Part shown: positions 6,356 through 19,445 of the stretch, in pieces | Layout: the number at the start of each line of letters is the position of its first letter | Position numbering within the stretch: the first letter of the stretch is position 1 | The notes under the pieces: model-generated | The model's input: only the letters and a program-made list of their open reading frames with translations | Database searches by the model: none | Told to the model about the DNA's origin: nothing | Program-made: the position numbers and the translations under genes | NCBI GenBank assembly: GCA_017513865.1 | Contig: JAFWMN010000006.1 | Coordinates: forward strand, 2,857 to 66,856 | Direction: 5' to 3' | DNA: 64,000 nt | From: Bacilli bacterium | Lineage (GTDB): Bacteria > Bacillota_I > Bacilli_A > RF39 > UBA660

Positions 6356-7513
6356 ATGTCTGTAAGAAAACTACCTGATAATAAGGTAACTAAAGATGGA
6401 AGAGCATATGCATTTTATATAAATGAATATGGTCTAGATGGTAAAAGACATCAACATCAATCTAAAGCTTATATGACTTATGAAGAAGCCGTACAAGCTG
6501 AAAAAGATTATATTAATAAATATAAAGATATCGAAATAAATCCTCATATTACTTTCTATCAAGCATATCAAAAAGTATATGATTATAAGAAAGATAAGAT
6601 TAGACCTACTACTCTTAAAACTTATAGAGATAGAATAGTATTTATGAAATTATTTTGGGATGTAGAGTTAGTCGATTTAGATAGTGATTTATATCAACGT
6701 TGGAGAAACCAATTAAATAAAACTAATTTATCCGATAGATATAAAACGGATATACAAAAGTTAATTAAAACAATATGTAATTTTGCAGAAAAACAATGGG
6801 ATTTCAATTTAAGAAAGTTTTATAATAAATTAGAACCTTTTAAAACACCCGGTGCAGTAAAAAAAGAAATGGAAGTATATAAACCTGAGGAGTTCTACAA
6901 ATTCATATCAGTAGTTAATGATCCTCAAATGAGATGTTTGTATAAATCATTATATTACTGTGGATTACGTAGAGGTGAAGCTAGAGGACTTCAATGGAAA
7001 AATGTAGATTTAGAAAATAGAAGAATCTATATTAAACATCAAGTACAAAATGATCCAGTTACTAATAATGATAAGAAATGGGAAATATGTGCTTGTAAAA
7101 CAGCTACTTCACATAGGACAATACCTATTCCAGAAGATTTATATAATGAATTAATTTCACTTAAAGCACAAGAAAAAAGATACAACAGGAACTTCAGAGA
7201 TACTTGGTTTGTATTTGGTGGCAAAGAACCTATTGGAACTCATAAAATGAATAACTGGAAAAATTCATATTGTAAGAAAGCTGGTATAAAACAAATTAGA
7301 TTACATGACTTTAGACATAGTTGTGTATCAGCACTTATTAATGGAAACAATCCAGTAACTACTATATCAGCATTTGTTGGTCACTCTACTCCAACAGAAA
7401 CACTTGATACTTACTCTCATATGTTCGAAGAATCACTAGAAGGAGTAACTAATTATTTCGATAAAATTTACGAAGAAAATAACAAAAAAACATCCGAAGA
7501 TGTTGATAATTGA
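6356..7513 (+). CDS. int: Tyrosine site-specific recombinase (phage-type integrase)
   Basis: C-terminal catalytic residues R...HDFRHSCVSALI...TLDTYSHM (R-HxxR-Y); N-terminal SAM-like domain. Confidence 0.85.
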   Translation: MSVRKLPDNKVTKDGRAYAFYINEYGLDGKRHQHQSKAYMTYEEAVQAEKDYINKYKDIEINPHITFYQAYQKVYDYKKDKIRPTTLKTYRDRIVFMKLFWDVELVDLDSDLYQRWRNQLNKTNLSDRYKTDIQKLIKTICNFAEKQWDFNLRKFYNKLEPFKTPGAVKKEMEVYKPEEFYKFISVVNDPQMRCLYKSLYYCGLRRGEARGLQWKNVDLENRRIYIKHQVQNDPVTNNDKKWEICACKTATSHRTIPIPEDLYNELISLKAQEKRYNRNFRDTWFVFGGKEPIGTHKMNNWKNSYCKKAGIKQIRLHDFRHSCVSALINGNNPVTTISAFVGHSTPTETLDTYSHMFEESLEGVTNYFDKIYEENNKKTSEDVDN

Positions 7514-7831
7514 TGGGTGGTTGATGGGTAGCGCATTTTCAACGTTACCCTGAACCCTTTTAAATTAAAGGCAAAACAGTATTTTCTTTTAACCCACAGG
7601 GGGCGGAATATTTTAGTCACTGATTCGTACACTGTAGTTCGAATTCCTCCCTTATAAAATAAGGCTTTGTACACTATAGTTCATTTTTTCATATTTTTGC
7701 AATATGGTATTTAGATACCTAAAATGGTATGTAAAACTGGTCCTAAATTTTCAAGTAAAATACTTCTTGTTTTTATTACGAAAAATAAGATAAAAGAAAA
7801 AACTAGGATTCCAACGGAAAACTAGTTTTTT

Positions 7832-7864
7832 TTAAAATTAAAAAGCCTCCAAATGGAGGCGCAC
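7832..7864 (-). terminator. Rho-independent terminator, minus strand
   Basis: GCGCCTCC-ATTT-GGAGGC hairpin followed by TTTTTAATTTT on the minus strand, downstream of the 8111-8842 gene. Confidence 0.5.
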
Positions 7865-8110
7865 TTAAAAAGTGAAAAACCACATAAATGTGCACTAATT
7901 AAATGTACTATTATTATATTCAAATACGATTATTTTATTCATATATAAAGCAAAAACTAGCTTACGCTAGTCTTTGAAACACAACTTCCATATATGCAAA
8001 AAACATACATGCATTAATTAAATGTACTTTAATTATACAGATATTTTGATCTTTTGTCAATTTTTTTTTAAAAAGTTTTTGAAAAATTTTACAAAAAAAA
8101 TTTTTAATAA

Positions 8111-8842
8111 TTATTTAAATAAATAATATTTCGAAATTGCTTTTTTTATTTCAGCATAATCTTTCTTTGTTATTATTGCTAGTTTATCCTTTGCAAAATA
8201 AGGTGCATGAATTCTTTTTGAACTTAAATTCATCATATTTTCTATCTTAGCGGTTCCTTCTGCTAAACACTCAAGATCATAGTGAAAATAGTACTTATCA
8301 GATCTTCTTTTCGTAGTAAGCGGTATCATTGCCCACAATTTTTTATCACCTGTTGGCCTCCATAATATTGCTGGTCTTAGCTTTCTTAATTCACTACCAA
8401 TACCTATTCCAAAATCAACCCAGTAAATTGCATTTTGAATTAATTTATCTTCTTCTACATCTTTTTTATTAATTATATATTTATCTCTGCACCATTTTAT
8501 ATAGCTTATTCCCTCAATATCACTTTTTATATTCTTGTTTAAAAATCCAAGCAATGAATTCTTACCTTCTTGTAATATTAAATTAAAATCCTTTTTAGTT
8601 AACTTTAATGGTTTACCATGAACATAAATACATCTATTCATTTTAGATCTATTATAATCAGCAATTTTATTTACATCTACATATTTGTTAATGGAATTGC
8701 AATAAATACAGCCTTCTTTTTCTTTAGAGTATACTGGCATTCCAACATAATGATTTGCTGAAATATCATAGATAATTAAAACCCATTCCTTATCAACTCT
8801 TTCATTAGTTTCATATATTTGTTTAAAATTAATTGTTAACAT
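8111..8842 (-). CDS. MazF/PemK-fold toxin domain (C-terminal about 110 aa) fused to an uncharacterised 130-aa N-terminal Cys-containing domain
   Basis: IYWVDFGIGIGSELRKLRPAILWRP aligns with MazF LIWVDFDPTKGSEQAGHRPAVVL. IPLTTKRR corresponds to MazF CVPCTTQ. No MazE-like small gene upstream. Confidence 0.65.
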   Translation of the reverse strand: MLTINFKQIYETNERVDKEWVLIIYDISANHYVGMPVYSKEKEGCIYCNSINKYVDVNKIADYNRSKMNRCIYVHGKPLKLTKKDFNLILQEGKNSLLGFLNKNIKSDIEGISYIKWCRDKYIINKKDVEEDKLIQNAIYWVDFGIGIGSELRKLRPAILWRPTGDKKLWAMIPLTTKRRSDKYYFHYDLECLAEGTAKIENMMNLSSKRIHAPYFAKDKLAIITKKDYAEIKKAISKYYLFK

Positions 8843-8859
8843 TTACTACACCTCACTAA

Positions 8860-9945
8860 CTAATTACTCCATTTGTATCTTTCTCTATATTTAGCCATAA
8901 AAGAGTAATCATTAATATCATTTTGAATTCGACCTATAACAATACCCGGTTTAACATTTTGAGAATCTGCAAACCTTTTTATTTCAGATAAACTTATATT
9001 GCTATTTTTTATAAATTCTTCATAATCATTTTGATTAATTAACATGTTTCTAGCAAACTTATCAGCTGCTTTTTCTTCTTCACTTTCAATAAATTGATAA
9101 TCTATATATTGATTAGCAAAATCATCATTTGTTAAGTGACCAATCTCATGGAACAAAGTAAACCAAAATATATCAGAGAAAGATTGTCTTATAGTCATAC
9201 ATAAAACAACTTTATCATTTCTTTTTTGAATGAATCCTTGAACAGGTGCTCCGGTAAAATGTTGAACAACTTCAAATGCTATACCACACTCAGCAAAAAT
9301 ATTTTTTAATTCAGTAACCATATCATTTGCAGGTAAAAACATTGTTCTTTTTATATCTTCATATTTTGTTTTCAATTTTTCTATATCATAACTATTAGTA
9401 ATTTTTATTTTATTTGTAAAATACTCACATAATTTCTGCCATGCATATAATACATATACATTTACTTTGTTTGCCTTAGAGCCTCTAAAAGCAGCTTGTT
9501 GTATAGATAAACTTGGTATACTACATAAATTGTTTAAATTAAGAAATTTTCTCATATTTAAAACGGTTATTTCTTTTTTTGAATTACATTCAATTATTTC
9601 TGCAGTTTCACAAAATTTAATAACATCTTTTAAGTCTTTTAAAATATTCAATTCTTTTTCTTCGATGTTACTTAAACTATTAATTTCGAAAACTTCCTTA
9701 TCATAGTTACTTTGAAGATTCGTCCAAAAACTAGCAGGTATCCCTAAAGCATACTCTAATCTGTTTGCAAACTCAGATGATATATCTTTCTTTCCCCTCA
9801 CAACCTCACTAATATGTTTAGGGGAATATTCAGTTCTTATAGCTAATTCTTCTTGCGACATCTTCTTATCTTCCAAAACCTCTTTAATTGTTTCCCCTGG
9901 ATGAACTAACAAATCAATGGATAAGCCATTCACATTTCCCATCAT
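8860..9945 (-). CDS. XRE-HTH fused to an ImmA/IrrE-family (COG2856) zinc metallopeptidase
   Basis: N-terminal HTH (MSQEELAIRTEYSPKHISEVVRG); HEIGHL HExxH motif in the C-terminal half; overlaps the upstream toxin gene by 32 nt. Confidence 0.8.
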   Translation of the reverse strand: MMGNVNGLSIDLLVHPGETIKEVLEDKKMSQEELAIRTEYSPKHISEVVRGKKDISSEFANRLEYALGIPASFWTNLQSNYDKEVFEINSLSNIEEKELNILKDLKDVIKFCETAEIIECNSKKEITVLNMRKFLNLNNLCSIPSLSIQQAAFRGSKANKVNVYVLYAWQKLCEYFTNKIKITNSYDIEKLKTKYEDIKRTMFLPANDMVTELKNIFAECGIAFEVVQHFTGAPVQGFIQKRNDKVVLCMTIRQSFSDIFWFTLFHEIGHLTNDDFANQYIDYQFIESEEEKAADKFARNMLINQNDYEEFIKNSNISLSEIKRFADSQNVKPGIVIGRIQNDINDYSFMAKYRERYKWSN

Positions 9946-10267
9946 GATAATCTGCCACTCCTTTCAAATTAACCTTCTTACATTTTCTTAATGAATCATC
10001 ATCTAATTTTTCAGATAATGGTTCTACTATTAATCTATAATTCCTATTAATTTTAATACCAAAAAGATTATCTAAGTTTCCTACAAGAGGATGAGGATCA
10101 CCCAAGCCGATATCTAAATATTCTTTAAAGTTATCTGCTGCCCTAAGTTGATCAATTTTTTGTTTCAACGCTCTTGTCATATCAATACCAATAGTTCTTT
10201 TTAAATTTTCAATATCGCATAATTTCTTTTCTAACCTTCTGTTATCAGCTTCGATCTGCAACCTCAT
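9914..10267 (-). CDS. HigB/RelE-like type II toxin with a 30-aa N-terminal extension
   Basis: GDPHPLVGNL...NYRLIVEP resembles the HigB signature GYRLHPLKG...WRITFE; RBS GGAGG before the ATG at 10267. Confidence 0.55.
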   Translation of the reverse strand: MRLQIEADNRRLEKKLCDIENLKRTIGIDMTRALKQKIDQLRAADNFKEYLDIGLGDPHPLVGNLDNLFGIKINRNYRLIVEPLSEKLDDDSLRKCKKVNLKGVADYHDGKCEWLIH

Positions 10268-10356
10268 GCCTCCTTTCGTTGTTTAGATTACCTAATAGGT
10301 AATTTTATTATATACTATTTTTGTTTAAAAAACAATACTTAGTAAAAAAATCATCA

Positions 10357-10392
10357 AAAAACCAAGATATATCTAAAATCTTGGTTTTTATA
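10357..10392. terminator. Hairpin terminator, likely bidirectional
   Basis: AAAACCAAGAT-loop-ATCTTGGTTTT with T/A runs on both sides, between the GIY-YIG gene and the toxin operon. Confidence 0.4.
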
Positions 10393-11076
10393 TTACTTCA
10401 ACATTCCTAATTCTTCCATCTTTTCTTCTCTTAGTTTAGCTAGTGTTTTATTTCCACCAACTTTTTTCATAAAAGCATATATTTGTATAGCTTTCCACCC
10501 AGTTATTTCACAACCATATTGATTAAAGGACATTTTTTCACCCTTATATTCAACATTTTTAGCATCAACTACTGTCGCTACTTCTTCTGGATGATTAATT
10601 AAATATACCTCATCACCTATATTAATAATACCTTGATCTATTAGCCAATCCATTTTAGGTAATTGAGTAGATTTTCTTTTAGTAGTAGCTTCATCTTCAT
10701 CTTCCATTTCTTTAGCTGTTGGTTCAACTAAAACTAAATTATCTTCTAGTCCATTTATTTTAGCTATACAACGTAATATATCATATGCATCTTCAGCAGA
10801 CATTTCAAAGAATTCTCTTTTTCTTTCTTTACCATCTATATTATCTTTAGCTCTTAATGAGGGATTTAACTTATCAATAATTTCATGTACTGTTTTATCT
10901 TCTAAACGATGATTAACTTTATAATAAGCATATAATCTAAAAGCAAAAGGTACTGCTGACTTATCATTTAATGTTTTTAATCTTGAATATACATCATCAG
11001 CATATCCTATCTTTATATAATCCGGAAAAGAAGGATTTTTTAAAATATATATTGCACCTACTATATTATTATCCAT
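10393..11076 (-). CDS. GIY-YIG / T5orf172-like nuclease-domain protein with an uncharacterised C-terminal domain
   Basis: N-terminal GAIYILKN...IKIGYADD...RL GIY-YIG-like motif; sits between hsdS and the toxin module. Confidence 0.55.
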   Translation of the reverse strand: MDNNIVGAIYILKNPSFPDYIKIGYADDVYSRLKTLNDKSAVPFAFRLYAYYKVNHRLEDKTVHEIIDKLNPSLRAKDNIDGKERKREFFEMSAEDAYDILRCIAKINGLEDNLVLVEPTAKEMEDEDEATTKRKSTQLPKMDWLIDQGIINIGDEVYLINHPEEVATVVDAKNVEYKGEKMSFNQYGCEITGWKAIQIYAFMKKVGGNKTLAKLREEKMEELGMLK

Positions 11077-11087
11077 ATTATCAACTC

Positions 11088-12572
11088 CTATCCATTAATC
11101 AAATTATCAATATCATTACATAACGGAAGTAATTGCTCGATTTTCTCGACTATCCTTTGCTGTTCTTCTATAGGTGGTAGAGGAATATACATTTCCATAA
11201 CATGTTCCAATTTTAAATTTGACTGTGCTGATCCTCCACCCTTATGGGAAACAGTATAATGAAAATAAAATGAATTAATTGCATAATATAAATATTTAGA
11301 TAAATCATAATTAAAAGGTGTAAGTTTTAAAACTCGTTGATTTAACAATGCAAGATGATTCAAATCATAAATAGCAGTTTTACCCAAAGGTTCAGGATTA
11401 CTAGATTGAGACGATAAACACATTAAAAAATCACCCTTTTCAATTTTAGTTTTTAACATTTGCTCAGTCGGATTTTCCACAAATGAAGTTTGACTATTTA
11501 TTTCTACAATTCTCTTCATTATATTCTGACTTTTAATTACTGGAAAACCATTACCATTTTTTATCGTTTCAGATGGTTTATATGCATAACCATTTTGATA
11601 ACTAAATAACATCCCAAGTTTAACCCATTTCCAATTATTAGGAATAGAAAAAGGAAATTCCTCTTCATTTAAAGATAAATTAAATTTTTTTGAATTATCG
11701 CTATATAAATCACTTGTAGGAATGATAGATTCAACTTTTGAATCTGTTAATTTTTGCTCCGACATATTACCGTGAATGGCATAATCAATTACTGATTTTT
11801 TCATTTCAGTTTTAAAGGCACTTTTAATAGTGATTAATTCATCTTCAATTGGTTTTATTTCATCCAATTTCTCCATCAAGTCCTCTATTTTATTTACAAT
11901 TCTTTGTTGTTCTTCAAGAGGTGGTAATGGAATTGGAATTGTTGAATAATGAGCATATCCAAAATTTGGTTGAATACCACTCAATTGTTCTGCTAATCCT
12001 CTTTTAAAATACTCTGATTTAATAACATAATATAAGTATTTATTATTACCTAAATCCTCAAAAAACCTCATTCTTAATGTACTTGTATTAAGCATTACTT
12101 CATCAGGTTCATTATAGATGGCAACTTTCCCCCATGAACCTCCAGAGCATGCCGTTACTATATCACCAATATTAAGTTTTAAATGAGAATATTTTTTTTG
12201 ATACTCATCGACACTTACATATAGTTGTTTTTTTTCTAAATCAATTTCTCCATCTAATATATTTGTTACAGAAAAAAGCTGAATACCATTTTCTTTATAC
12301 TGATGTTTTCTTATACCAGCACCTTCTTGAATAATTGAAACATTAGACAAGTATGCCCATGCCCAGTTATTGGGTATTTGAAATTTTGGCTCAATATCAT
12401 CATTATTTAAAAAAGGTTTTTTTAGAATTATCTTTTCTTTAGTTAGTTTTTTTCTAGATTCTATTAAATTTTCTTTTAATTCAAATGCTGACATATCTTT
12501 TTCGTTTTGTTCTGTTAGTTTTCCTTGAATAGCATAATCTAATATTGCTTTTTTTAAATCATCAACAATCAT
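11088..12572 (-). CDS. hsdS: Type I restriction-modification specificity subunit HsdS with two target-recognition domains
   Basis: Duplicated conserved spacer IPLPPLEEQQRIV / IPLPPIEEQQRIVEKIE; 4-nt overlap with hsdM. Confidence 0.85.
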   Translation of the reverse strand: MIVDDLKKAILDYAIQGKLTEQNEKDMSAFELKENLIESRKKLTKEKIILKKPFLNNDDIEPKFQIPNNWAWAYLSNVSIIQEGAGIRKHQYKENGIQLFSVTNILDGEIDLEKKQLYVSVDEYQKKYSHLKLNIGDIVTACSGGSWGKVAIYNEPDEVMLNTSTLRMRFFEDLGNNKYLYYVIKSEYFKRGLAEQLSGIQPNFGYAHYSTIPIPLPPLEEQQRIVNKIEDLMEKLDEIKPIEDELITIKSAFKTEMKKSVIDYAIHGNMSEQKLTDSKVESIIPTSDLYSDNSKKFNLSLNEEEFPFSIPNNWKWVKLGMLFSYQNGYAYKPSETIKNGNGFPVIKSQNIMKRIVEINSQTSFVENPTEQMLKTKIEKGDFLMCLSSQSSNPEPLGKTAIYDLNHLALLNQRVLKLTPFNYDLSKYLYYAINSFYFHYTVSHKGGGSAQSNLKLEHVMEMYIPLPPIEEQQRIVEKIEQLLPLCNDIDNLING

Positions 12573-14056
12573 TCTAATTCTCCAATAATATTCATAATTT
12601 CTTGTAATTTTTGATCTAATTCTTTTTCAAGACTTTCTCTTTTATTTATAAAATTATTCATTGTTTCTTTCGGAGGAAGAATAACCTCTTCTTTAGTAGG
12701 AAAACTACATTGATCTAGATTATAATTCATATTAGCTATATCTTCTTTAGAAAATTTTCTTGATTTCCATGTTTCTGTTAATGATTCATCCTTTTTTTCA
12801 TCTTTTATTTCAATTCTATTATTCCACCAAGATATTACTTCATCAAAATGCTTCAGCTCAACTGGTTTAGTCTTGCTAAAAGCTTTATATCCTTTTGGTA
12901 AATCCATTCTATAAAACCATATATCACTAGTTGCACTGGTCTTATCAAAAAACAATAGATTTGTTGCAATTCCAGTATATGGGGCAAATATAGAACCAGG
13001 CAATCTAATAATTGTATGTAAATTACATTCATTTATTAACTTTTGCTTAATAGCAACTTTAGTATTGTCCTGACCAAATAGAAAACCATCTGGCAATACT
13101 ATTCCAACCCTACCATTTTCTTTTAATCTATATAAAATTTCAACCATAAATAAGTCAGCAGTTTCGGAATCTCTCAGTTCAGTTGGAAAATTTTGTTGAA
13201 TAGATTTTTTTTCTGTTCCACCATAAGGAGGATTCATTAAAATAACATCAAATTTATCATTTGCTTCATAGTCTCTTACATTTTTTTCTAATGAGTTCCC
13301 TCTAATAATTTGAGGTTCGTTAATATCATGTAAAAGCATATTTGTAGTACATAATAGATATGGTAATGATTTCTTTTCAACACCATAAAATGATTTTTGC
13401 AATTTTTCATTACCAGTTGTATTGCTTACTTCTTCTTTCATATGATTAAGTGCAGATACTAAAAATCCACCAGTACCACATGCAAAATCAGCTATTAATT
13501 CTCCAACCTTTGGATCAACCATTTTTACTACAAAATCAGTAACGGCTCTTGGAGTATAAAATTCTCCAGATTTACCAGCAGATTGTAAATCTTTAAGTAT
13601 AGTTTCATAAATTTCATTAAATGCATGTCTAACTTTAAAATCTGTTAAATCCATTTCATTTAAAACATTTACAACTTGTCTTATTAAAACTCCATCTTTC
13701 ATGTAGTTATTTAAATCAGTAAATACTTCTTTAACTAACTTTCCTCTAACATCAGTATTCTCATCAACTTCAAGATCTTTTAATGTGGCAAATAATTGGA
13801 TAATAAATGTTGCCATTTCATCTCCGGTTATTGCTTTACCATCCTTATTATCTGGAGCCCAATTTCTCCATCTATATTCTTCTGGAATTATTGATTTATA
13901 ATTATCTTCAAGAATTTCCCATTCAGATTCTTTAGCATCATATAACTTAAGAAATAACATCCAGACAATTTGCTCAATTCTTTGTGCATCACCATTAACA
14001 CCTGCATCTTGTCTCATTATATCTTGCAATCTTTTTATCATTGTTCCTATATTCAT
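12569..14056 (-). CDS. hsdM: Type I restriction-modification N6-adenine DNA methyltransferase HsdM
   Basis: Motif I DFACGTGGFL, motif IV LMNPPYGG, HsdM N-terminal domain. Confidence 0.9.
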   Translation of the reverse strand: MNIGTMIKRLQDIMRQDAGVNGDAQRIEQIVWMLFLKLYDAKESEWEILEDNYKSIIPEEYRWRNWAPDNKDGKAITGDEMATFIIQLFATLKDLEVDENTDVRGKLVKEVFTDLNNYMKDGVLIRQVVNVLNEMDLTDFKVRHAFNEIYETILKDLQSAGKSGEFYTPRAVTDFVVKMVDPKVGELIADFACGTGGFLVSALNHMKEEVSNTTGNEKLQKSFYGVEKKSLPYLLCTTNMLLHDINEPQIIRGNSLEKNVRDYEANDKFDVILMNPPYGGTEKKSIQQNFPTELRDSETADLFMVEILYRLKENGRVGIVLPDGFLFGQDNTKVAIKQKLINECNLHTIIRLPGSIFAPYTGIATNLLFFDKTSATSDIWFYRMDLPKGYKAFSKTKPVELKHFDEVISWWNNRIEIKDEKKDESLTETWKSRKFSKEDIANMNYNLDQCSFPTKEEVILPPKETMNNFINKRESLEKELDQKLQEIMNIIGELE

Positions 14057-14067
14057 TATTAACCTCC

Positions 14068-16389
14068 CTAGCTATATAAAGCGTTTTTTATATTAGAAAT
14101 AACATTAAGATATTTATCTTTACCTCCAAATAAATTTACTATAGGAACTAATCCACCAAATTTATTGAAGTTTTTAACTTCTAATATTCTTATATTTTCT
14201 AATTCAATTACATCGTGATTTTTATAAGTATTTAATAATTCATCAATAACACTCTTTTGAGATTCATTATAACCGTTAATAAAATCACTATTCTTTACTT
14301 TTTCAATTCTATCATCTTTTGATATCACTTCTTCGCCATAAGCCATATTAGATAAGATATCAAATATATCTACATTGTCATTAGCTTTGTCATATAAAGC
14401 ATCTATCATAACACCTTCATTAAATAAATTATTTAAGAAATCTTTTTTAGAATCAGCTCTATACCATTCTTGTTCAAAATCTTCATATCTTTCATATACT
14501 CTTTTTAGATTTTTACCAGAATATTCAACTATTGATTCTGTAATTAATTTACCATCAGCATCATAATATTTAACCGTTTCATTTAATATGGATACTGGAA
14601 CATCTTTAATATAAATCTTTTTAGATTGTCCATCTTCCACTTCGCCACTTATTGGTTTAGGTACTGGTGGATCAACTAATACACCATAACCTGCTCCGCT
14701 TATTGGTTTATCTCCATTACCACCATCTACATCAATAACAACCTCTGCAGGTCCATTAAAGTTAGGATCTGCAAACTTATCTGAATTACTTCTAAAATCC
14801 ATTATAGTAAAATAATTCTTATTTTTATTAGGTAATAATCTTGTACCTCTACCTATTATTTGTTTAAATTCAGTCATACTTTGTATTTCTTCATCTAATA
14901 CAATTAATTTAACTGTTTTAGTATCTACACCAGTAGATAATAATTTAGAAGTTGTAGCAATAACTGGATAAGCAGTATTAGCATCAATAAAGTCATCTAA
15001 TTTAGCTTTACCAACAACATCATTACTTGTAATTCTAACAATGTAATTTTGATTTACTTGCATCATATCTTTATTTTCTTCAGCGAGTGCATTTCTCATT
15101 CTTAATGCATGTTCAGTATCTACACAGAAAACTATAGTTCTAGCCATTCTATCTGTAGATTTCATATATTCAGTAATTCTTTTAGCAACTACCTTAGTTC
15201 TTTCATCAATTACAATAGTTCTATCAAAATCATGAAGAGTATATTCTTTATCTTCTACTTCATATCCATCTTCATCTAGTTTGCCCCTTTCAGGTCTATA
15301 ACCCTCAAGATCTTTATCTAAACTTACTTTAATCACTTTATAAGGCGCTAAGAATCCATCCTCAATACCTTGTTTTAATGAATATGTATATATAGGTTTC
15401 CCAAAATATGTAATATTAGATACATCTACAGTTTCTTTTGGTGTAGCAGTCATACCTATTTGTGTAGCTCCACTAAAATATGTTAAAATTTCATGCCAGT
15501 TAGAGTCATCTTTTGCACTACTTCTATGACACTCATCAACTATAATTAAATCAAAGAAATCAGGTTTAAATTGTTTATAAATTTCTTCTTCATTACTTCT
15601 TAATTGGTGATATAAAGACATATAAATTTCATATGAAGAATCCATATTTCTATGCTCAACCTTAGTCATGACTTTTTGAAAAGGTTTAAAATCATTTTGC
15701 ATTGTTTGATCTATTAAAACATTTCTATCTGCTAAATATAATATTTTTTTCATTTTTCCAGATTTATGTAATCTATGAATTATTTGGAAAGCAGTAAAAG
15801 TTTTTCCTGTACCAGTAGCCATAACTAACAAAATTCTCTTTTGACCTTTAGATATAGCTTCAATAGTTTTATTAATTGCAATTCTTTGATAATATCTTGG
15901 AGTTTTATTAATATCCATAAAATAATATGGTTCTGTAATTAATTCTTCTTGCTCTGGAGTAATTTCTTTTTCTAATAGATATCTTTCCCATAATTGTTTT
16001 GGAGTTGGAAATTCATTTAAAGCAATAGTTCTTTCTTCTCCAGTAATCATATCATGCTCATAAAACTCATCACCATTAGATGAGTAAGCAAAAGGAATAT
16101 CTAAATCTGCTGCATAATCCATACCTTGTTGAATGCCATGAGATGCTAAAACCTTATTGTCTTTTGCTTCAACAATAGCTATAGGAATATTAGCTTTATA
16201 TGATAAAAGATAATCAACTTTTTTACCTTTACCCCTTTGAGCAATATTTTCCCTAACATTTATTTTACCAGCAGTATAATAATACTCACATCTAATTTGA
16301 TTTTTAATATCCCACTCAGCTTCTTGTAATGCAGGTGTAATAAATTTTAACTTTATATCTTCTTCAGTTAAGTCTTTTTTATTAATCAT
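14068..16389 (-). CDS. hsdR: Type I restriction endonuclease subunit HsdR (short form, 773 aa)
   Basis: N-terminal PD-(D/E)xK (VDYLL...IVEAKD), SF2 helicase Walker A MATGTGKT and DECH box; -10/-35 and RBS upstream at about 16400-16460. Confidence 0.85.
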   Translation of the reverse strand: MINKKDLTEEDIKLKFITPALQEAEWDIKNQIRCEYYYTAGKINVRENIAQRGKGKKVDYLLSYKANIPIAIVEAKDNKVLASHGIQQGMDYAADLDIPFAYSSNGDEFYEHDMITGEERTIALNEFPTPKQLWERYLLEKEITPEQEELITEPYYFMDINKTPRYYQRIAINKTIEAISKGQKRILLVMATGTGKTFTAFQIIHRLHKSGKMKKILYLADRNVLIDQTMQNDFKPFQKVMTKVEHRNMDSSYEIYMSLYHQLRSNEEEIYKQFKPDFFDLIIVDECHRSSAKDDSNWHEILTYFSGATQIGMTATPKETVDVSNITYFGKPIYTYSLKQGIEDGFLAPYKVIKVSLDKDLEGYRPERGKLDEDGYEVEDKEYTLHDFDRTIVIDERTKVVAKRITEYMKSTDRMARTIVFCVDTEHALRMRNALAEENKDMMQVNQNYIVRITSNDVVGKAKLDDFIDANTAYPVIATTSKLLSTGVDTKTVKLIVLDEEIQSMTEFKQIIGRGTRLLPNKNKNYFTIMDFRSNSDKFADPNFNGPAEVVIDVDGGNGDKPISGAGYGVLVDPPVPKPISGEVEDGQSKKIYIKDVPVSILNETVKYYDADGKLITESIVEYSGKNLKRVYERYEDFEQEWYRADSKKDFLNNLFNEGVMIDALYDKANDNVDIFDILSNMAYGEEVISKDDRIEKVKNSDFINGYNESQKSVIDELLNTYKNHDVIELENIRILEVKNFNKFGGLVPIVNLFGGKDKYLNVISNIKNALYS

Positions 16390-16903: not shown

Positions 16904-18760
16904 TTATCTAATTTTACTACCACCCTGTTCTCTATGTGTTTTTAAACAATCATCACTGCTCATGAGGCTAGTATATAAATTTGGCTTAGATAATGGTATG
17001 ATTTTAGGTGTTTTGTTTTGCTCATCTTCTTCTTGCAATTTTGAATCAGATGTTACTTCAGCACAAATTTGTTCAAATAATAACTGATTGTCTAAGAGCA
17101 GTGCCTGTAACTTCTCACTATCTGTAAGATTAATTGTTTTTTGATAATCACTTTTTATATCAGATATACGATGCTTCATAAATAATCTTATGGCATTTTC
17201 ATTTGCACTTTTTTTTACCGCTGCTCCTACAATATAAACCAGATTGTTTGGAAACATGTAAGCATAAATTCGCTCTCCTTCGCTACCTTTAATTTTAAAT
17301 AAGAAATTATTTAAATGAGGCTTATGTGCGTAACCACTATCTATAAATCCTTGTAATAATTTTAAAATTTTTATACGACTATCACGCTTTATATATTTTA
17401 AATCAGATAAAAAGCATGTCTCACCATTAGCTGTTTTTCCAAAAATTATTTTTGGAATTTTGTTTTCGTTATCCATATAATTTTGGTCATTATTATCTTT
17501 TTCAGTTTTTGATTTTTCTTCTTTTTTCTCCAAATCACTTTCATTAACAAGGTCCTCTTCATATTCGTTGGTTGTGGTTTCTTTTAACGAAGCATCAGTT
17601 TCTTTATACCTTTCAAGTCTTTGTTGTAATTTTTCTTTTTTTTCTGTAAACATACTTATATATCTAAGTTGTGTAGCATTTTTATTAAATGCATTAGTAT
17701 TCATGATAACTTTGCAATATTTTTCAATTCTATTAAATACACCTCGATCAAACGGTATATTTACGTCATTAACAACCGAACAATGTTTTAAATATATACA
17801 CAAATTCAAATAAACATTTCTAAATATTACTTTTGCATCGAGTGTTAATTCTTTTATTTGATTTATTTCTTCTAGTTTATTTAGTAATACCTCAAATTCG
17901 TCTTTGTTAAAATCATTTTTCATGTAAAATTTTCCTATTATATCGAGCGATTCAATAGCCTTCCTAACACCACTTTTAGGCTTATAAAACGAATAAATAT
18001 CGCTTCTTATTTGATGTTCTAATCGCGATTCTGTATAATCTTGTTCTGCATTTAATGGTGGAAACAATGTTGTCATAACATTTTTTAAACCACCTGACAT
18101 TTCTATTAAAAAATCAATGTCAGCCACTTGCACTTTTCTTATGCCACTACGCATTGCTGCATATCTAAAATCTGAAAAAGCTGTTTTGTTTTTATCTAAT
18201 GAATCAAGCAATTGTTGTGGTAATAGTAAATTTCCACCTTGATCTTGATTAATAATATCATCAGTTAAAATTCCCACATCAATCCAATTAAAAGAAGAAT
18301 CACCATCGTATGATAAAAATTCATGATTAATTAATGTAGAAAATATTGGATTTTGCAATTGATAATATGCGAACAGGTCATGCCCGCCAGTTGATCTTTC
18401 TCCTGTAGTCAAAGACAATGAAATATTTTTCCTAAAATCGTGAGACGGTAATATCGATGCTTGTATTTTTTCTGGCCTCGCTATAAATTGATCTGCTATT
18501 TCTTCAATTTCTTCTACACTTTTAGCAGAGCGCAAAGGGGAATATTTTATCATATCATGATACATAATTGGTGCTTTAAAAAAGTGTTCACAAGCAACAG
18601 CATAGTTAGATGCTGCTGTATCATCTCTCGATGTTTCATCGATATCACGATCAAACCCATCACTTTGAGACATTTCAGCAAACTTTCTTGCCATAATTCC
18701 GGAATTAACATAACGTGTAGCAGCTTCCCTAAAAACTTTTTCTAAATTTATTTCACTCAT
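16904..18760 (-). CDS. Large uncharacterised protein (about 618 aa): N-terminal about 430-aa unknown region, acidic linker, C-terminal Gp49/HigB-like RelE-fold domain
   Basis: C-terminal RIKILKLLQGFIDSG...FKIKGSEGERIYAYMFPNNLVYIVGAAVKKS resembles the Gp49/DUF891 HigB pattern. Start moved to the internal ATG with GGAGG RBS (18760) to remove overlap with yggS. Visibly higher GC than its neighbours. Confidence 0.4.
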   Translation of the reverse strand: MSEINLEKVFREAATRYVNSGIMARKFAEMSQSDGFDRDIDETSRDDTAASNYAVACEHFFKAPIMYHDMIKYSPLRSAKSVEEIEEIADQFIARPEKIQASILPSHDFRKNISLSLTTGERSTGGHDLFAYYQLQNPIFSTLINHEFLSYDGDSSFNWIDVGILTDDIINQDQGGNLLLPQQLLDSLDKNKTAFSDFRYAAMRSGIRKVQVADIDFLIEMSGGLKNVMTTLFPPLNAEQDYTESRLEHQIRSDIYSFYKPKSGVRKAIESLDIIGKFYMKNDFNKDEFEVLLNKLEEINQIKELTLDAKVIFRNVYLNLCIYLKHCSVVNDVNIPFDRGVFNRIEKYCKVIMNTNAFNKNATQLRYISMFTEKKEKLQQRLERYKETDASLKETTTNEYEEDLVNESDLEKKEEKSKTEKDNNDQNYMDNENKIPKIIFGKTANGETCFLSDLKYIKRDSRIKILKLLQGFIDSGYAHKPHLNNFLFKIKGSEGERIYAYMFPNNLVYIVGAAVKKSANENAIRLFMKHRISDIKSDYQKTINLTDSEKLQALLLDNQLLFEQICAEVTSDSKLQEEDEQNKTPKIIPLSKPNLYTSLMSSDDCLKTHREQGGSKIR

Positions 18761-18797
18761 AATATGCCTCCAAACATTATCATACACCTCTTTATAA

Positions 18798-19445
18798 TTA
18801 TAACATATTATTTTTATATCTTCTTTCCCCAAATATTTTAGTACCTATTCTTATTATATTGGTTCCTTCTTCTAGGGCTATTTTATAATCATTACTCATG
18901 CCCATTGATAGTAGTTGTAGATTATATTTATTTTTTAACTCTTTCATTTCTTTAAATGATTTTTTTATTATTTTTGTGTTATTTGTGTTAGGAGCTATAG
19001 CCATTAATCCTTTTAAATTAATGTTTGAAAGTTTTTTTATTTCTTTTATTATGGTTTCTAATTCTTCTTTTTTAATTCCGGTTTTGTTTGGATCATTGGC
19101 TATATTGATTTCTATTAATATGTTTATTTTTTTATTATTTTTGATAGCTTCTTTATTGATTTCTTTAGCTAATTTAATAGAGTCTACTGATTCTATTAAA
19201 TATATATTTCTTTTAATAAGTTCTTTTACTTTGTTTGTTTGTAGATGTCCTATCATGTGCCAATTAATATCTTTTGGGAGACTATCCATTTTAGTTATTA
19301 ATTCTTTTACATAGTTTTCACCAAAGTCTTTAATACCTAGATTATAAGCCTTTAATATTTCTTCATTACTTCTTGTTTTTGATACGGCTACTAAGGTAAT
19401 ATTATTACCTATTTCCCTTTTTATTTCTTCTATTTTTTCTTTCAT
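18798..19445 (-). CDS. yggS: YggS-family pyridoxal-phosphate homeostasis protein
   Basis: TLVAVSKTRS...IGHLQTNKVK...NLKGLMAIAP... conserved YggS/PROSC motifs. Confidence 0.85.
   Translation of the reverse strand: MKEKIEEIKREIGNNITLVAVSKTRSNEEILKAYNLGIKDFGENYVKELITKMDSLPKDINWHMIGHLQTNKVKELIKRNIYLIESVDSIKLAKEINKEAIKNNKKINILIEINIANDPNKTGIKKEELETIIKEIKKLSNINLKGLMAIAPNTNNTKIIKKSFKEMKELKNKYNLQLLSMGMSNDYKIALEEGTNIIRIGTKIFGERRYKNNML

Follow-up and report, generated by a model that had tools for sequence, protein, structure and literature searches.

MazF is the textbook type II toxin, neutralized by a protein. What accompanies a MazF-type gene that has no such antitoxin gene beside it? The question is raised by gene C, which lies in a 64-kb stretch of DNA from a Bacilli bacterium (GenBank assembly GCA_017513865.1, contig JAFWMN010000006.1); this whole stretch is hereafter called the window, and positions are counted from its first nucleotide (nt). 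A first-pass annotation had recognized a MazF/PemK domain in the C-terminal half of the gene C product, the lack of a MazE partner, and an XRE-peptidase gene upstream, all of which we confirm. It missed the conserved partner, which is a pair of small RNA genes downstream of gene C. We propose, with a probability of roughly 55%, that the locus is a type III-like toxin–antitoxin or abortive-infection module combining a MazF-family toxin with RNA antitoxins. That the protein has a tandem fold, that RNA is its obligate partner, and that the peptidase is optional are solid anatomical findings; RNase activity, toxicity, neutralization by RNA, and a role in defense are what we infer. The module consists of the following elements.

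8111..8842, minus strand: gene C, encoding a 243-amino-acid (aa) protein predicted to be a tandem of MazF folds (open reading frame [ORF] with an ATG start, protein family, full-length AlphaFold model)
8531..8842, minus strand: N-terminal domain, aa 1–104, a diverged MazF/CcdB fold according to the AlphaFold model of the domain alone, Foldseek, and the alignment with MazF
8438..8530, minus strand: linker helix, about aa 105–135, with the invariant K116-W117-C118-x-D120-K121 (invariant columns; helix 108–129 in the model of the N-terminal domain)
8114..8437, minus strand: C-terminal PemK/MazF domain, aa 136–243 (Pfam PF02452 match)
8032..8060, minus strand: promoter P1, a perfect sigma-70-type TTGACA-17 nt-TATAAT (hexamers invariant in all loci, spacer variable)
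7946..8031, minus strand: small RNA gene 1, about 80 nt, with its own intrinsic terminator (stem 7951–7976; covariance-model match of 98.8 bits)
7834..7918, minus strand: small RNA gene 2, about 70 nt, with its own TATAAT (7913–7918), nested hairpins, and an intrinsic terminator (stem 7845–7860)

Gene C is a real gene and not a chance ORF, because it has 361 homologs at E ≤ 1e-3, almost all 241–261 aa long and matched end to end, and both of its halves are conserved. Column identity averages 76% over the two halves (34 sequences, down to 63% identity), and both are under constraint. The carriers are mostly metagenome-assembled genomes labeled uncultured Bacilli, Bacillota, Mollicutes, or Mycoplasma. 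Human-gut assemblies are the source of many metagenomic contigs with gene C. The family is taxonomically narrow. GenBank phages gave no match to the protein and, at the DNA level, a single chance match of 31 nt. PADLOC returned nothing for the protein at E ≤ 1, and no ORF of the MazE/PemI antitoxin type lies beside gene C in the window.

The C-terminal half belongs to the MazF/PemK family by sequence. Pfam PF02452 (PemK_toxin) matches residues 137–238 over profile positions 3–107 of 109 (35.9 bits, E = 9.4e-9, curated cut-off 23.1), and a precomputed match to it is present in all full-length homologs listed. The motif IYWVDFGIGIGSELRKLRPAIL occupies residues 139–160. We aligned both halves of the protein with the MazF proteins of Escherichia coli and Bacillus subtilis. 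GSELRKLRP (R156) and IPLTTK (T176/T177) of the C-terminal domain, both invariant in the 34 sequences, align with the MazF motifs, in which we take the catalytic Arg to be R29 in E. coli and R25 in B. subtilis, and the catalytic Thr T52 and T48. By this alignment, the C-terminal domain is apparently catalytically competent. Searches of solved structures by sequence, with the full protein and with a profile of either domain, gave chance matches only and no MazF. The family is too diverged for sequence matching in the PDB.

The first-pass annotation had described the N-terminal half as an unrecognized, cysteine-containing domain. The first part of this description holds at the level of sequence. 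No Pfam family, PemK included, was found in the N-terminal domains scanned (0/32 members), and the 54 matches of the N-terminal profile among 1.84 billion representative proteins are all members or fragments of the gene C family, the full-length ones measuring 244–273 aa. The second part does not hold: C45 and C48 are variable in the 34-sequence alignment, and only C118 (invariant) and C71 (nearly invariant) are kept, so that a cysteine-based metal site is unsupported.

What the sequence does not reveal is apparent in the predicted structure. In the full-length AlphaFold model, residues 1–104 have a predicted local distance difference test (pLDDT) score of about 90, and the order of their strands and helices mirrors that of the C-terminal half. 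Modeled alone, the domain reaches a pLDDT of 86.9 and a predicted template modeling (pTM) score of 0.73. A structural comparison with MazF had been advised at the outset, and the model of the domain does match MazF structures first. Against the PDB, Mycobacterium tuberculosis 5xe3 gives the best Foldseek match (TM-score 0.72 on the target, E = 1.3e-4), and the top matches, 5xe3, 6kyt, and the Staphylococcus aureus, B. subtilis (YdcE, 1ne8), and E. coli proteins, are all MazF with a probability of 1.00; the type III toxin CptN (4rmo) and CcdB rank after them. A MazE-type antitoxin fold, which had also been considered for this region, was not found in the Foldseek comparison, MazF coming first. 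The earlier idea of a new sensor or cis-inhibitory fold has to be abandoned, the confident model being a degenerate MazF fold. The gene C protein is thus, as modeled, a tandem of two MazF folds of which the N-terminal one is degenerate. At the positions aligned with the catalytic Arg and Thr, this domain has KEW and PVYS; since both residues appear replaced, it is probably a catalytically inactive pseudo-subunit.

Two further features characterize the protein. The tail motif SK(R/M)..(Y/F)..K(L/P)..TKKD(Y/F) is common to both domains and comes with a short insertion absent from canonical MazF. Besides the invariant K-W-C-x-D-K of the linker, the N-terminal domain contains an invariant loop, IS.NHYVG.P. 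The strong conservation of linker motif and loop suggests that together they form a composite RNA-binding or catalytic surface.

The noncoding module downstream of gene C spans about 220 nt (about 7838–8060, minus strand) and comprises two paralogous small RNA genes. RNA 1 consists, in order, of a 5' single-stranded segment, UACAUUUAAUUAAUG, a hairpin of 8–9 bp, GGAAG, a U-rich spacer, and an intrinsic terminator. RNA 2 has the 5' motif UACAUUUAAUUAGUG in common with it. Both units, of about 70–85 nt and with a period of 119 nt, start with TACATTTAATTA(A/G)TGCA, a motif that occurs nowhere else in the 64-kb window. RNA 2 is a paralog of RNA 1, as the RNA-1 covariance model matches it (31.1 bits, E = 0.002 in the window). 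The promoter of the RNAs is a perfect consensus in every locus of the close family. Upstream of gene C itself, most stand-alone loci (those without genes A and B, which precede gene C in the window) have no near-consensus promoter, and several show TG-extended −10-like boxes by eye. As no terminator separates gene C from RNA 1, the gene C mRNA probably also carries RNA 1 at its 3' end. The conserved 5' single strand of the RNAs contains UACAU, which we take to be the cleavage site of Bacillota MazF; that it acts as a pseudo-substrate is speculative.

Rfam contains no family matching the region 7400–10500 at E ≤ 1, and the RNA region alone gives sub-threshold chance matches. A scan of viral contigs with the exact RNA pattern yielded 0 matches, and the module region has no match in GenBank phages. 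Two other functions were considered for the module and rejected. RNA 1 encodes no conserved small peptide, because a 1-nt difference in hairpin-loop length between loci breaks the reading frame. Nor are the RNAs antisense to the gene C mRNA: the predicted duplexes are no stronger than those of shuffled RNAs and their positions are not conserved.

Gene C and these RNAs are strictly linked. The RNA module lies behind gene C in 12/12 of the loci first compared, including every stand-alone one. Its conserved part extends from exactly the −35 box to the second terminator, excluding the promoter spacer. Across the stand-alone loci, RNA 1 is on average 86% and RNA 2 84% identical to the window, compared with 77% for gene C, 68% for third codon positions, 62% for the promoter spacer, and 53–56% for the flanks. 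The RNA genes are more conserved than gene C itself, a pattern that points to selection on them. Conversely, a scan of metagenomes with the exact RNA-2 pattern returned 19 loci, and gene C is directly upstream and in the expected orientation in all 17 that could be evaluated (17/17, one of them, L031, being a remnant). RNA 1 is still present with homologs only about 35–45% identical (L041, L043, L044, and L045); L043 has both RNAs, and the other three have RNA 1 alone.

The structure of RNA 1 is conserved beyond its sequence. In the divergent copies, the arms of the hairpin differ and yet pair (CAUGU/ACAUG, CACAC/GUGUG, CAUAUC/GAUAUG, and CAUGUAC/GUACAUG). MAFFT misaligned these hairpins, and the alignment was therefore built with the covariance model, which scores copies of the close family at 89–112 bits, divergent copies at 33–69, and RNA 2 at about 20–35. 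In this alignment, fitted to the model, 99.6% of the cells are paired. Fourteen of the 20 pairs have changed on both sides, as against 1.9 in column shuffles, none of which reached the observed value (0/500), and 1–4 in a control with slid partners. Covariation is present in both helices of RNA 1.

Loci in decay show which component persists. In L031 (159–524), gene C is deleted after about aa 53 and RNA 1 has an internal deletion, while RNA 2 is intact. In L036 (3732–4459), gene C is frameshifted by 1 nt, with an intact RNA-2 pattern. L032 (690–800) has an RNA-2-like gene on its own, equipped with a terminator and a full TTGACA-17-TACAAT promoter, and no tandem-MazF gene is found within 700 nt upstream; this RNA looks like a recombinant between the 5' motifs common to RNA 1 and RNA 2. 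It could represent an orphan antitoxin. In a further locus, L020 (5001–5595), gene C is truncated by an in-frame stop and the RNA module was not detected. Among the evaluable loci, we saw no intact gene C without the RNA module. RNA that persists without an intact gene, and never the reverse, is the asymmetry expected of a toxin and its antitoxin.

One divergent homolog, P0138, has an additional arrangement. Upstream of its gene (L046, 305–454), a promoter-like TTGACA precedes about two copies of a 51-nt direct repeat (AATATGTGAGCCGCAGCTTTACCTGCGG...) that each contain a hairpin, and a terminator follows immediately before the ribosome-binding site; RNA 1 is present downstream of the gene as well. 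The upstream repeat region has no match in Rfam.

The other candidate partners of gene C are the two genes that precede it in the window.

8860..9945, minus strand: gene B, encoding a 361-aa protein with a HigA-type helix-turn-helix (HTH) domain and an M78 (ImmA/IrrE) peptidase domain with an HEIGH motif (PADLOC, TIGR02607, Pfam, PHROG)
9914..10267, minus strand: gene A, encoding a 117-aa HigB/RelE-like protein, its end overlapping the start of gene B by 32 nt

Gene B is the XRE-peptidase gene of the first-pass annotation, on the same strand as gene C and 17 nt away. In PADLOC, its product matches PD-Lambda-2_B (E = 9.1e-32, residues 15–353 against profile positions 59–386 of 402), capP (3.6e-8), and capH (2.8e-5). 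The HTH domain matches TIGR02607 HigA with 56.4 bits and Pfam HTH_3 above its cut-off. Because Pfam Peptidase_M78, with 18.7 bits, falls below its cut-off of 22, the assignment as a peptidase rests mainly on the PADLOC and PHROG matches. The product of gene A falls just short of the cut-off of Pfam HigB-like_toxin (26.0 bits, cut-off 27) and matches PHROG 3066, 'toxin of TA system' (3.3e-7); PADLOC gave no PD-Lambda-2_A match.

Where the gene C product is at least 88% identical, relatives keep the A-B-C triad with flanks that vary (loci L001–L006, L008–L010, L022, L027, L033–L036, and L039). A and B are also kept in L020, where gene C has decayed. A different XRE-M78 gene, 24.5% identical to B, abuts gene C in L011. 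In at least 12 other distinct loci, gene C stands alone, without A or B, and follows genes for a class II aminoacyl-tRNA synthetase, Spo0A, Lon protease, AbiEii, or Bro-N, or unannotated ORFs. The peptidase partner is optional for the gene C family. The first-pass annotation had proposed that proteolysis releases the C-terminal domain, and since gene C occurs without an XRE-peptidase in many loci, activation or release by a neighboring peptidase is not the general mechanism. In this lineage only, gene B is probably a regulator or an antitoxin-like component of the operon.

Some of the genes next to stand-alone copies are of interest in themselves. Unannotated ORFs of 120–142 aa without a Pfam match lie 14–60 nt upstream of gene C in L015 (1142–1534), L016 (3132–3494), and L044 (164–592); some lineages could use them as an alternative protein partner. 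In L041 (2229–4852), and also in L042, a 249-aa member of the family is found with RNA 1 between a gene for a Dp-1-type holin and one for a NAGPA-domain protein, a putative endolysin; given these neighbors, the module of L041 resides within a prophage lysis cassette. Gene C and its RNAs move as a unit among defense islands, prophages, and mobile elements.

The window locus itself lies in a defense island, whose other genes are listed here with the adjacent integrase gene.

14068–16389, minus strand: HsdR of a type I restriction-modification system
12569–14056, minus strand: HsdM of the same system
11088–12572, minus strand: HsdS of the same system
10393–11076, minus strand: T5orf172/MUG113 protein with a C-terminal extension (PADLOC candidate PDC-S57, 6.6e-73)
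6356–7513, plus strand: tyrosine integrase, with Mob_Pre relaxase and AAA_25 genes

The T5orf172 gene sits between the type I restriction-modification operon and gene A, and a copy 52% identical to it flanks the triad in L001. A 642-aa ORF without a Pfam match (16904–18832, minus strand) adjoins the type I restriction-modification genes. The region with the integrase, Mob_Pre, and AAA_25 genes looks like an integrated mobilizable element. In this region (window, 6356–7830; L001, 7006–7329), the integrase gene converges on the RNA 2 terminator. The window has the complete gene, and relatives have a remnant of 107 aa that comes within about 20 nt of the terminator. Integration may occur at the end of the RNA module, or an integrative element may carry the cassette. 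Near the integrase, no tRNA or tmRNA gene was found.

We propose the following mechanism. Gene C and the two small RNA genes would form one autonomous, mobile, two-part module. The protein would act as a single-chain pseudo-dimer, its N-terminal domain probably standing in for the second subunit in the homodimer that MazF usually forms. The small RNAs, made from their own promoters, would bind and neutralize the protein as type III RNA antitoxins do. When RNA synthesis stops or the RNAs are degraded, for instance upon a phage-induced shut-off, the RNase would be freed and cleave cellular or phage RNA. In the window, the module is the third gene of an operon headed by A and B, which most likely add transcriptional or proteolytic control. 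The pattern is the one expected of a toxin with an RNA antitoxin by type III logic, because the protein has an RNase fold with the residues aligned to catalytic positions retained and its sole universal partner is RNA; the strong promoter of the RNAs, the mobility of the unit, and the RNAs that outlast a decayed gene argue in the same direction. A bolder statement is that these loci represent an undescribed class of RNA-neutralized modules, each with a single-chain pseudo-dimeric MazF of one active and one degenerate subunit and with downstream RNAs, mobile in uncultured gut Bacilli and their prophages, and in some cases placed under an XRE-M78 switch. We hold it tentatively, at a little less than even odds.

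Several points weigh against the RNA-antitoxin interpretation. The two halves of the protein have no significant sequence similarity (hhalign E = 0.02, probability 2%; BLASTP E = 0.64), and the weak hhalign match, which is topologically consistent, is not proof of an internal duplication. In the full-length AlphaFold model, the C-terminal domain has a pLDDT of about 55–65 and the pTM is 0.45; because this domain and the inter-domain geometry are modeled with low confidence, the packing of the two domains as in a MazF dimer is something that we infer rather than see. The scan from the RNA side used an exact pattern and hence samples close relatives. The alignment used for covariation was fitted to the structure of the model, which favors that structure somewhat. 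The asymmetry of the decayed loci comes from three or four metagenomic contigs. Finally, the RNAs are downstream of the gene with their own promoters, whereas type III antitoxins are upstream tandem repeats in the toxin transcript.

Among the alternatives, the one that survives best makes the small RNAs the functional output, for example as regulators of host or phage transcripts, with the gene C protein as their dedicated processing or binding partner. The strict linkage between protein and RNA and the higher conservation of the RNA speak for it, the near-invariant single-stranded 5' motif could serve as a target seed, and the RNA-2-like gene of L032 does occur alone with a full promoter. This explanation is nevertheless unlikely. 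The module is found in defense islands, prophage lysis cassettes, and mobile elements, and changes neighborhoods like a toxin–antitoxin module; the residues aligned with the catalytic positions of MazF are retained; and the RNAs have no complementarity to the module's own mRNA beyond that of shuffled controls, other targets not having been searched for.

A second alternative puts the weight on the operon of the window. The locus would be a three-protein system of the PD-lambda-2 type, in which A, B, and C act together, peptidase B activates or releases the MazF domain of C, and the RNAs are incidental; this comes near to what the first-pass annotation had in mind. Gene B is a full-length match to PD-Lambda-2_B (9.1e-32), it is separated from C by only 17 nt, and a second, 24.5% identical XRE-M78 gene precedes gene C in L011. 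The order of a HigB-like gene, an XRE-peptidase gene, and a third gene is that of PD-lambda-2, in which C is needed for defense (PMC9519451), and three-component COG2856 systems have been predicted (Makarova et al. 2009; PMC2701414). Gene C and the RNAs, however, occur without A or B in at least 12 distinct loci, gene C is not PD-Lambda-2_C and has no PADLOC match, its N-terminal domain is modeled as a compact MazF fold and not as a removable pro-domain, and the universally conserved partner is the RNA. We give this alternative little credence.

Less probable still is a toxin that inhibits itself, the N-terminal domain or the KWCxDK linker filling the RNA groove of the active domain in cis, with no separate antitoxin; MazE does so in trans by means of its C-terminal tail. 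The stand-alone loci without a protein antitoxin, the invariant linker, and an N-terminal domain that appears to have no catalytic residues are all compatible with such a design. It leaves the obligatory, strongly conserved RNA genes unexplained, its trigger is not evident, and the relative placement of the two domains on which it depends is modeled without confidence. A reversal of roles, with one or both small RNAs being harmful and the MazF-type RNase acting as an antitoxin that cleaves them, as in type V or VIII systems, is very improbable: it would account for the very strong promoter and for UACAU, presumably the Bacillota MazF site, at conserved RNA positions, but the RNA genes outlast a deleted, frameshifted, or absent gene C (L031, L036, and L032), which should be lethal if the RNA were toxic.

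If the RNA-antitoxin interpretation is correct, a member of the PemK family with RNA as its sole conserved partner would form a direct evolutionary and mechanistic bridge from type II to type III systems, and RNA partners may have been overlooked for many "solo" MazF genes. Specificity studies and engineering would also profit from a natural single-chain MazF that has one active site. The two small RNAs constitute an unannotated, strongly conserved RNA family in abundant uncultured Bacilli of the human gut, and, through the XRE-M78 regulators linked to the module, the wiring of such a switch to an effector becomes tractable. In the literature searched, the coverage of which was incomplete, neither natural tandem MazF proteins nor MazF/PemK-family toxins with RNA antitoxins turned up.

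How, then, does the module compare with known systems? With the type II modules MazF, PemK, and Kid, it shares the family of the C-terminal domain, which keeps the aligned Arg and Thr, and the predicted fold of the N-terminal domain. It differs in that two folds are joined in one chain of 243 aa, one of them apparently degenerate, whereas MazF is a homodimer of subunits of about 110 aa, and in that no MazE or PemI gene lies upstream, the conserved partner being RNA.

PD-lambda-2 is an experimentally validated E. coli defense system of three genes: a HigB-like gene, a HigA-HTH-peptidase gene, and a third gene, "related to a P4 phage antitoxin", that is required for defense (Vassallo et al. 2022; PMC9519451). 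Xre-COG2856 operons had earlier been predicted as three-component systems (Makarova et al. 2009; PMC2701414). The first two genes of the window operon are the same, a HigB-like gene and then a HigA-HTH-M78 fusion, and a third gene follows. This third gene is a predicted tandem MazF with RNAs, in place of the P4-antitoxin-like PD-lambda-2C; gene A has no match to the PADLOC model, and most members of the gene C family can do without the A/B pair. Since B matches the PD-lambda-2 model and gene C has no PADLOC match, the window contains a PD-lambda-2-like A/B pair with a different third gene. HTH and M78 modules of the CapH/CapP type de-repress immune operons (bioRxiv 10.1101/2022.04.27.489752). 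Gene B, directly upstream of a putative effector, joins both activities and matches both the capP and the capH models; it differs in that the two are fused in one protein, known here from sequence, and preceded by a HigB-like gene.

Type III toxins have no detectable sequence relationship to MazF. They do have the MazF/Kid fold, and their antitoxin is a series of short tandem repeats upstream of the toxin in the same transcript, with an intrinsic terminator between the two (PMC5086642). Like ToxIN, CptIN, TenpIN, and AbiQ, the gene C module would combine a MazF/Kid-like core, a likeness at the level of the fold only, with a dedicated, repeated, structured RNA and intrinsic terminators; CptN (4rmo) is among the fold matches of the gene C protein, the modules occur in phage-defense and mobile contexts, and an excess of RNA over protein appears built into the layout of the genes. 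Unlike the type III toxins, gene C belongs to the PemK family and not to ToxN/AbiQ, CptN, or TenpN (no PADLOC match; PemK_toxin is its only Pfam match), and its RNA units of about 70–85 nt, with a period of 119 nt, contrast with repeats of 35–45 nt cut from one precursor. L046 alone also has the canonical type III layout, with repeats and a terminator upstream of the gene.

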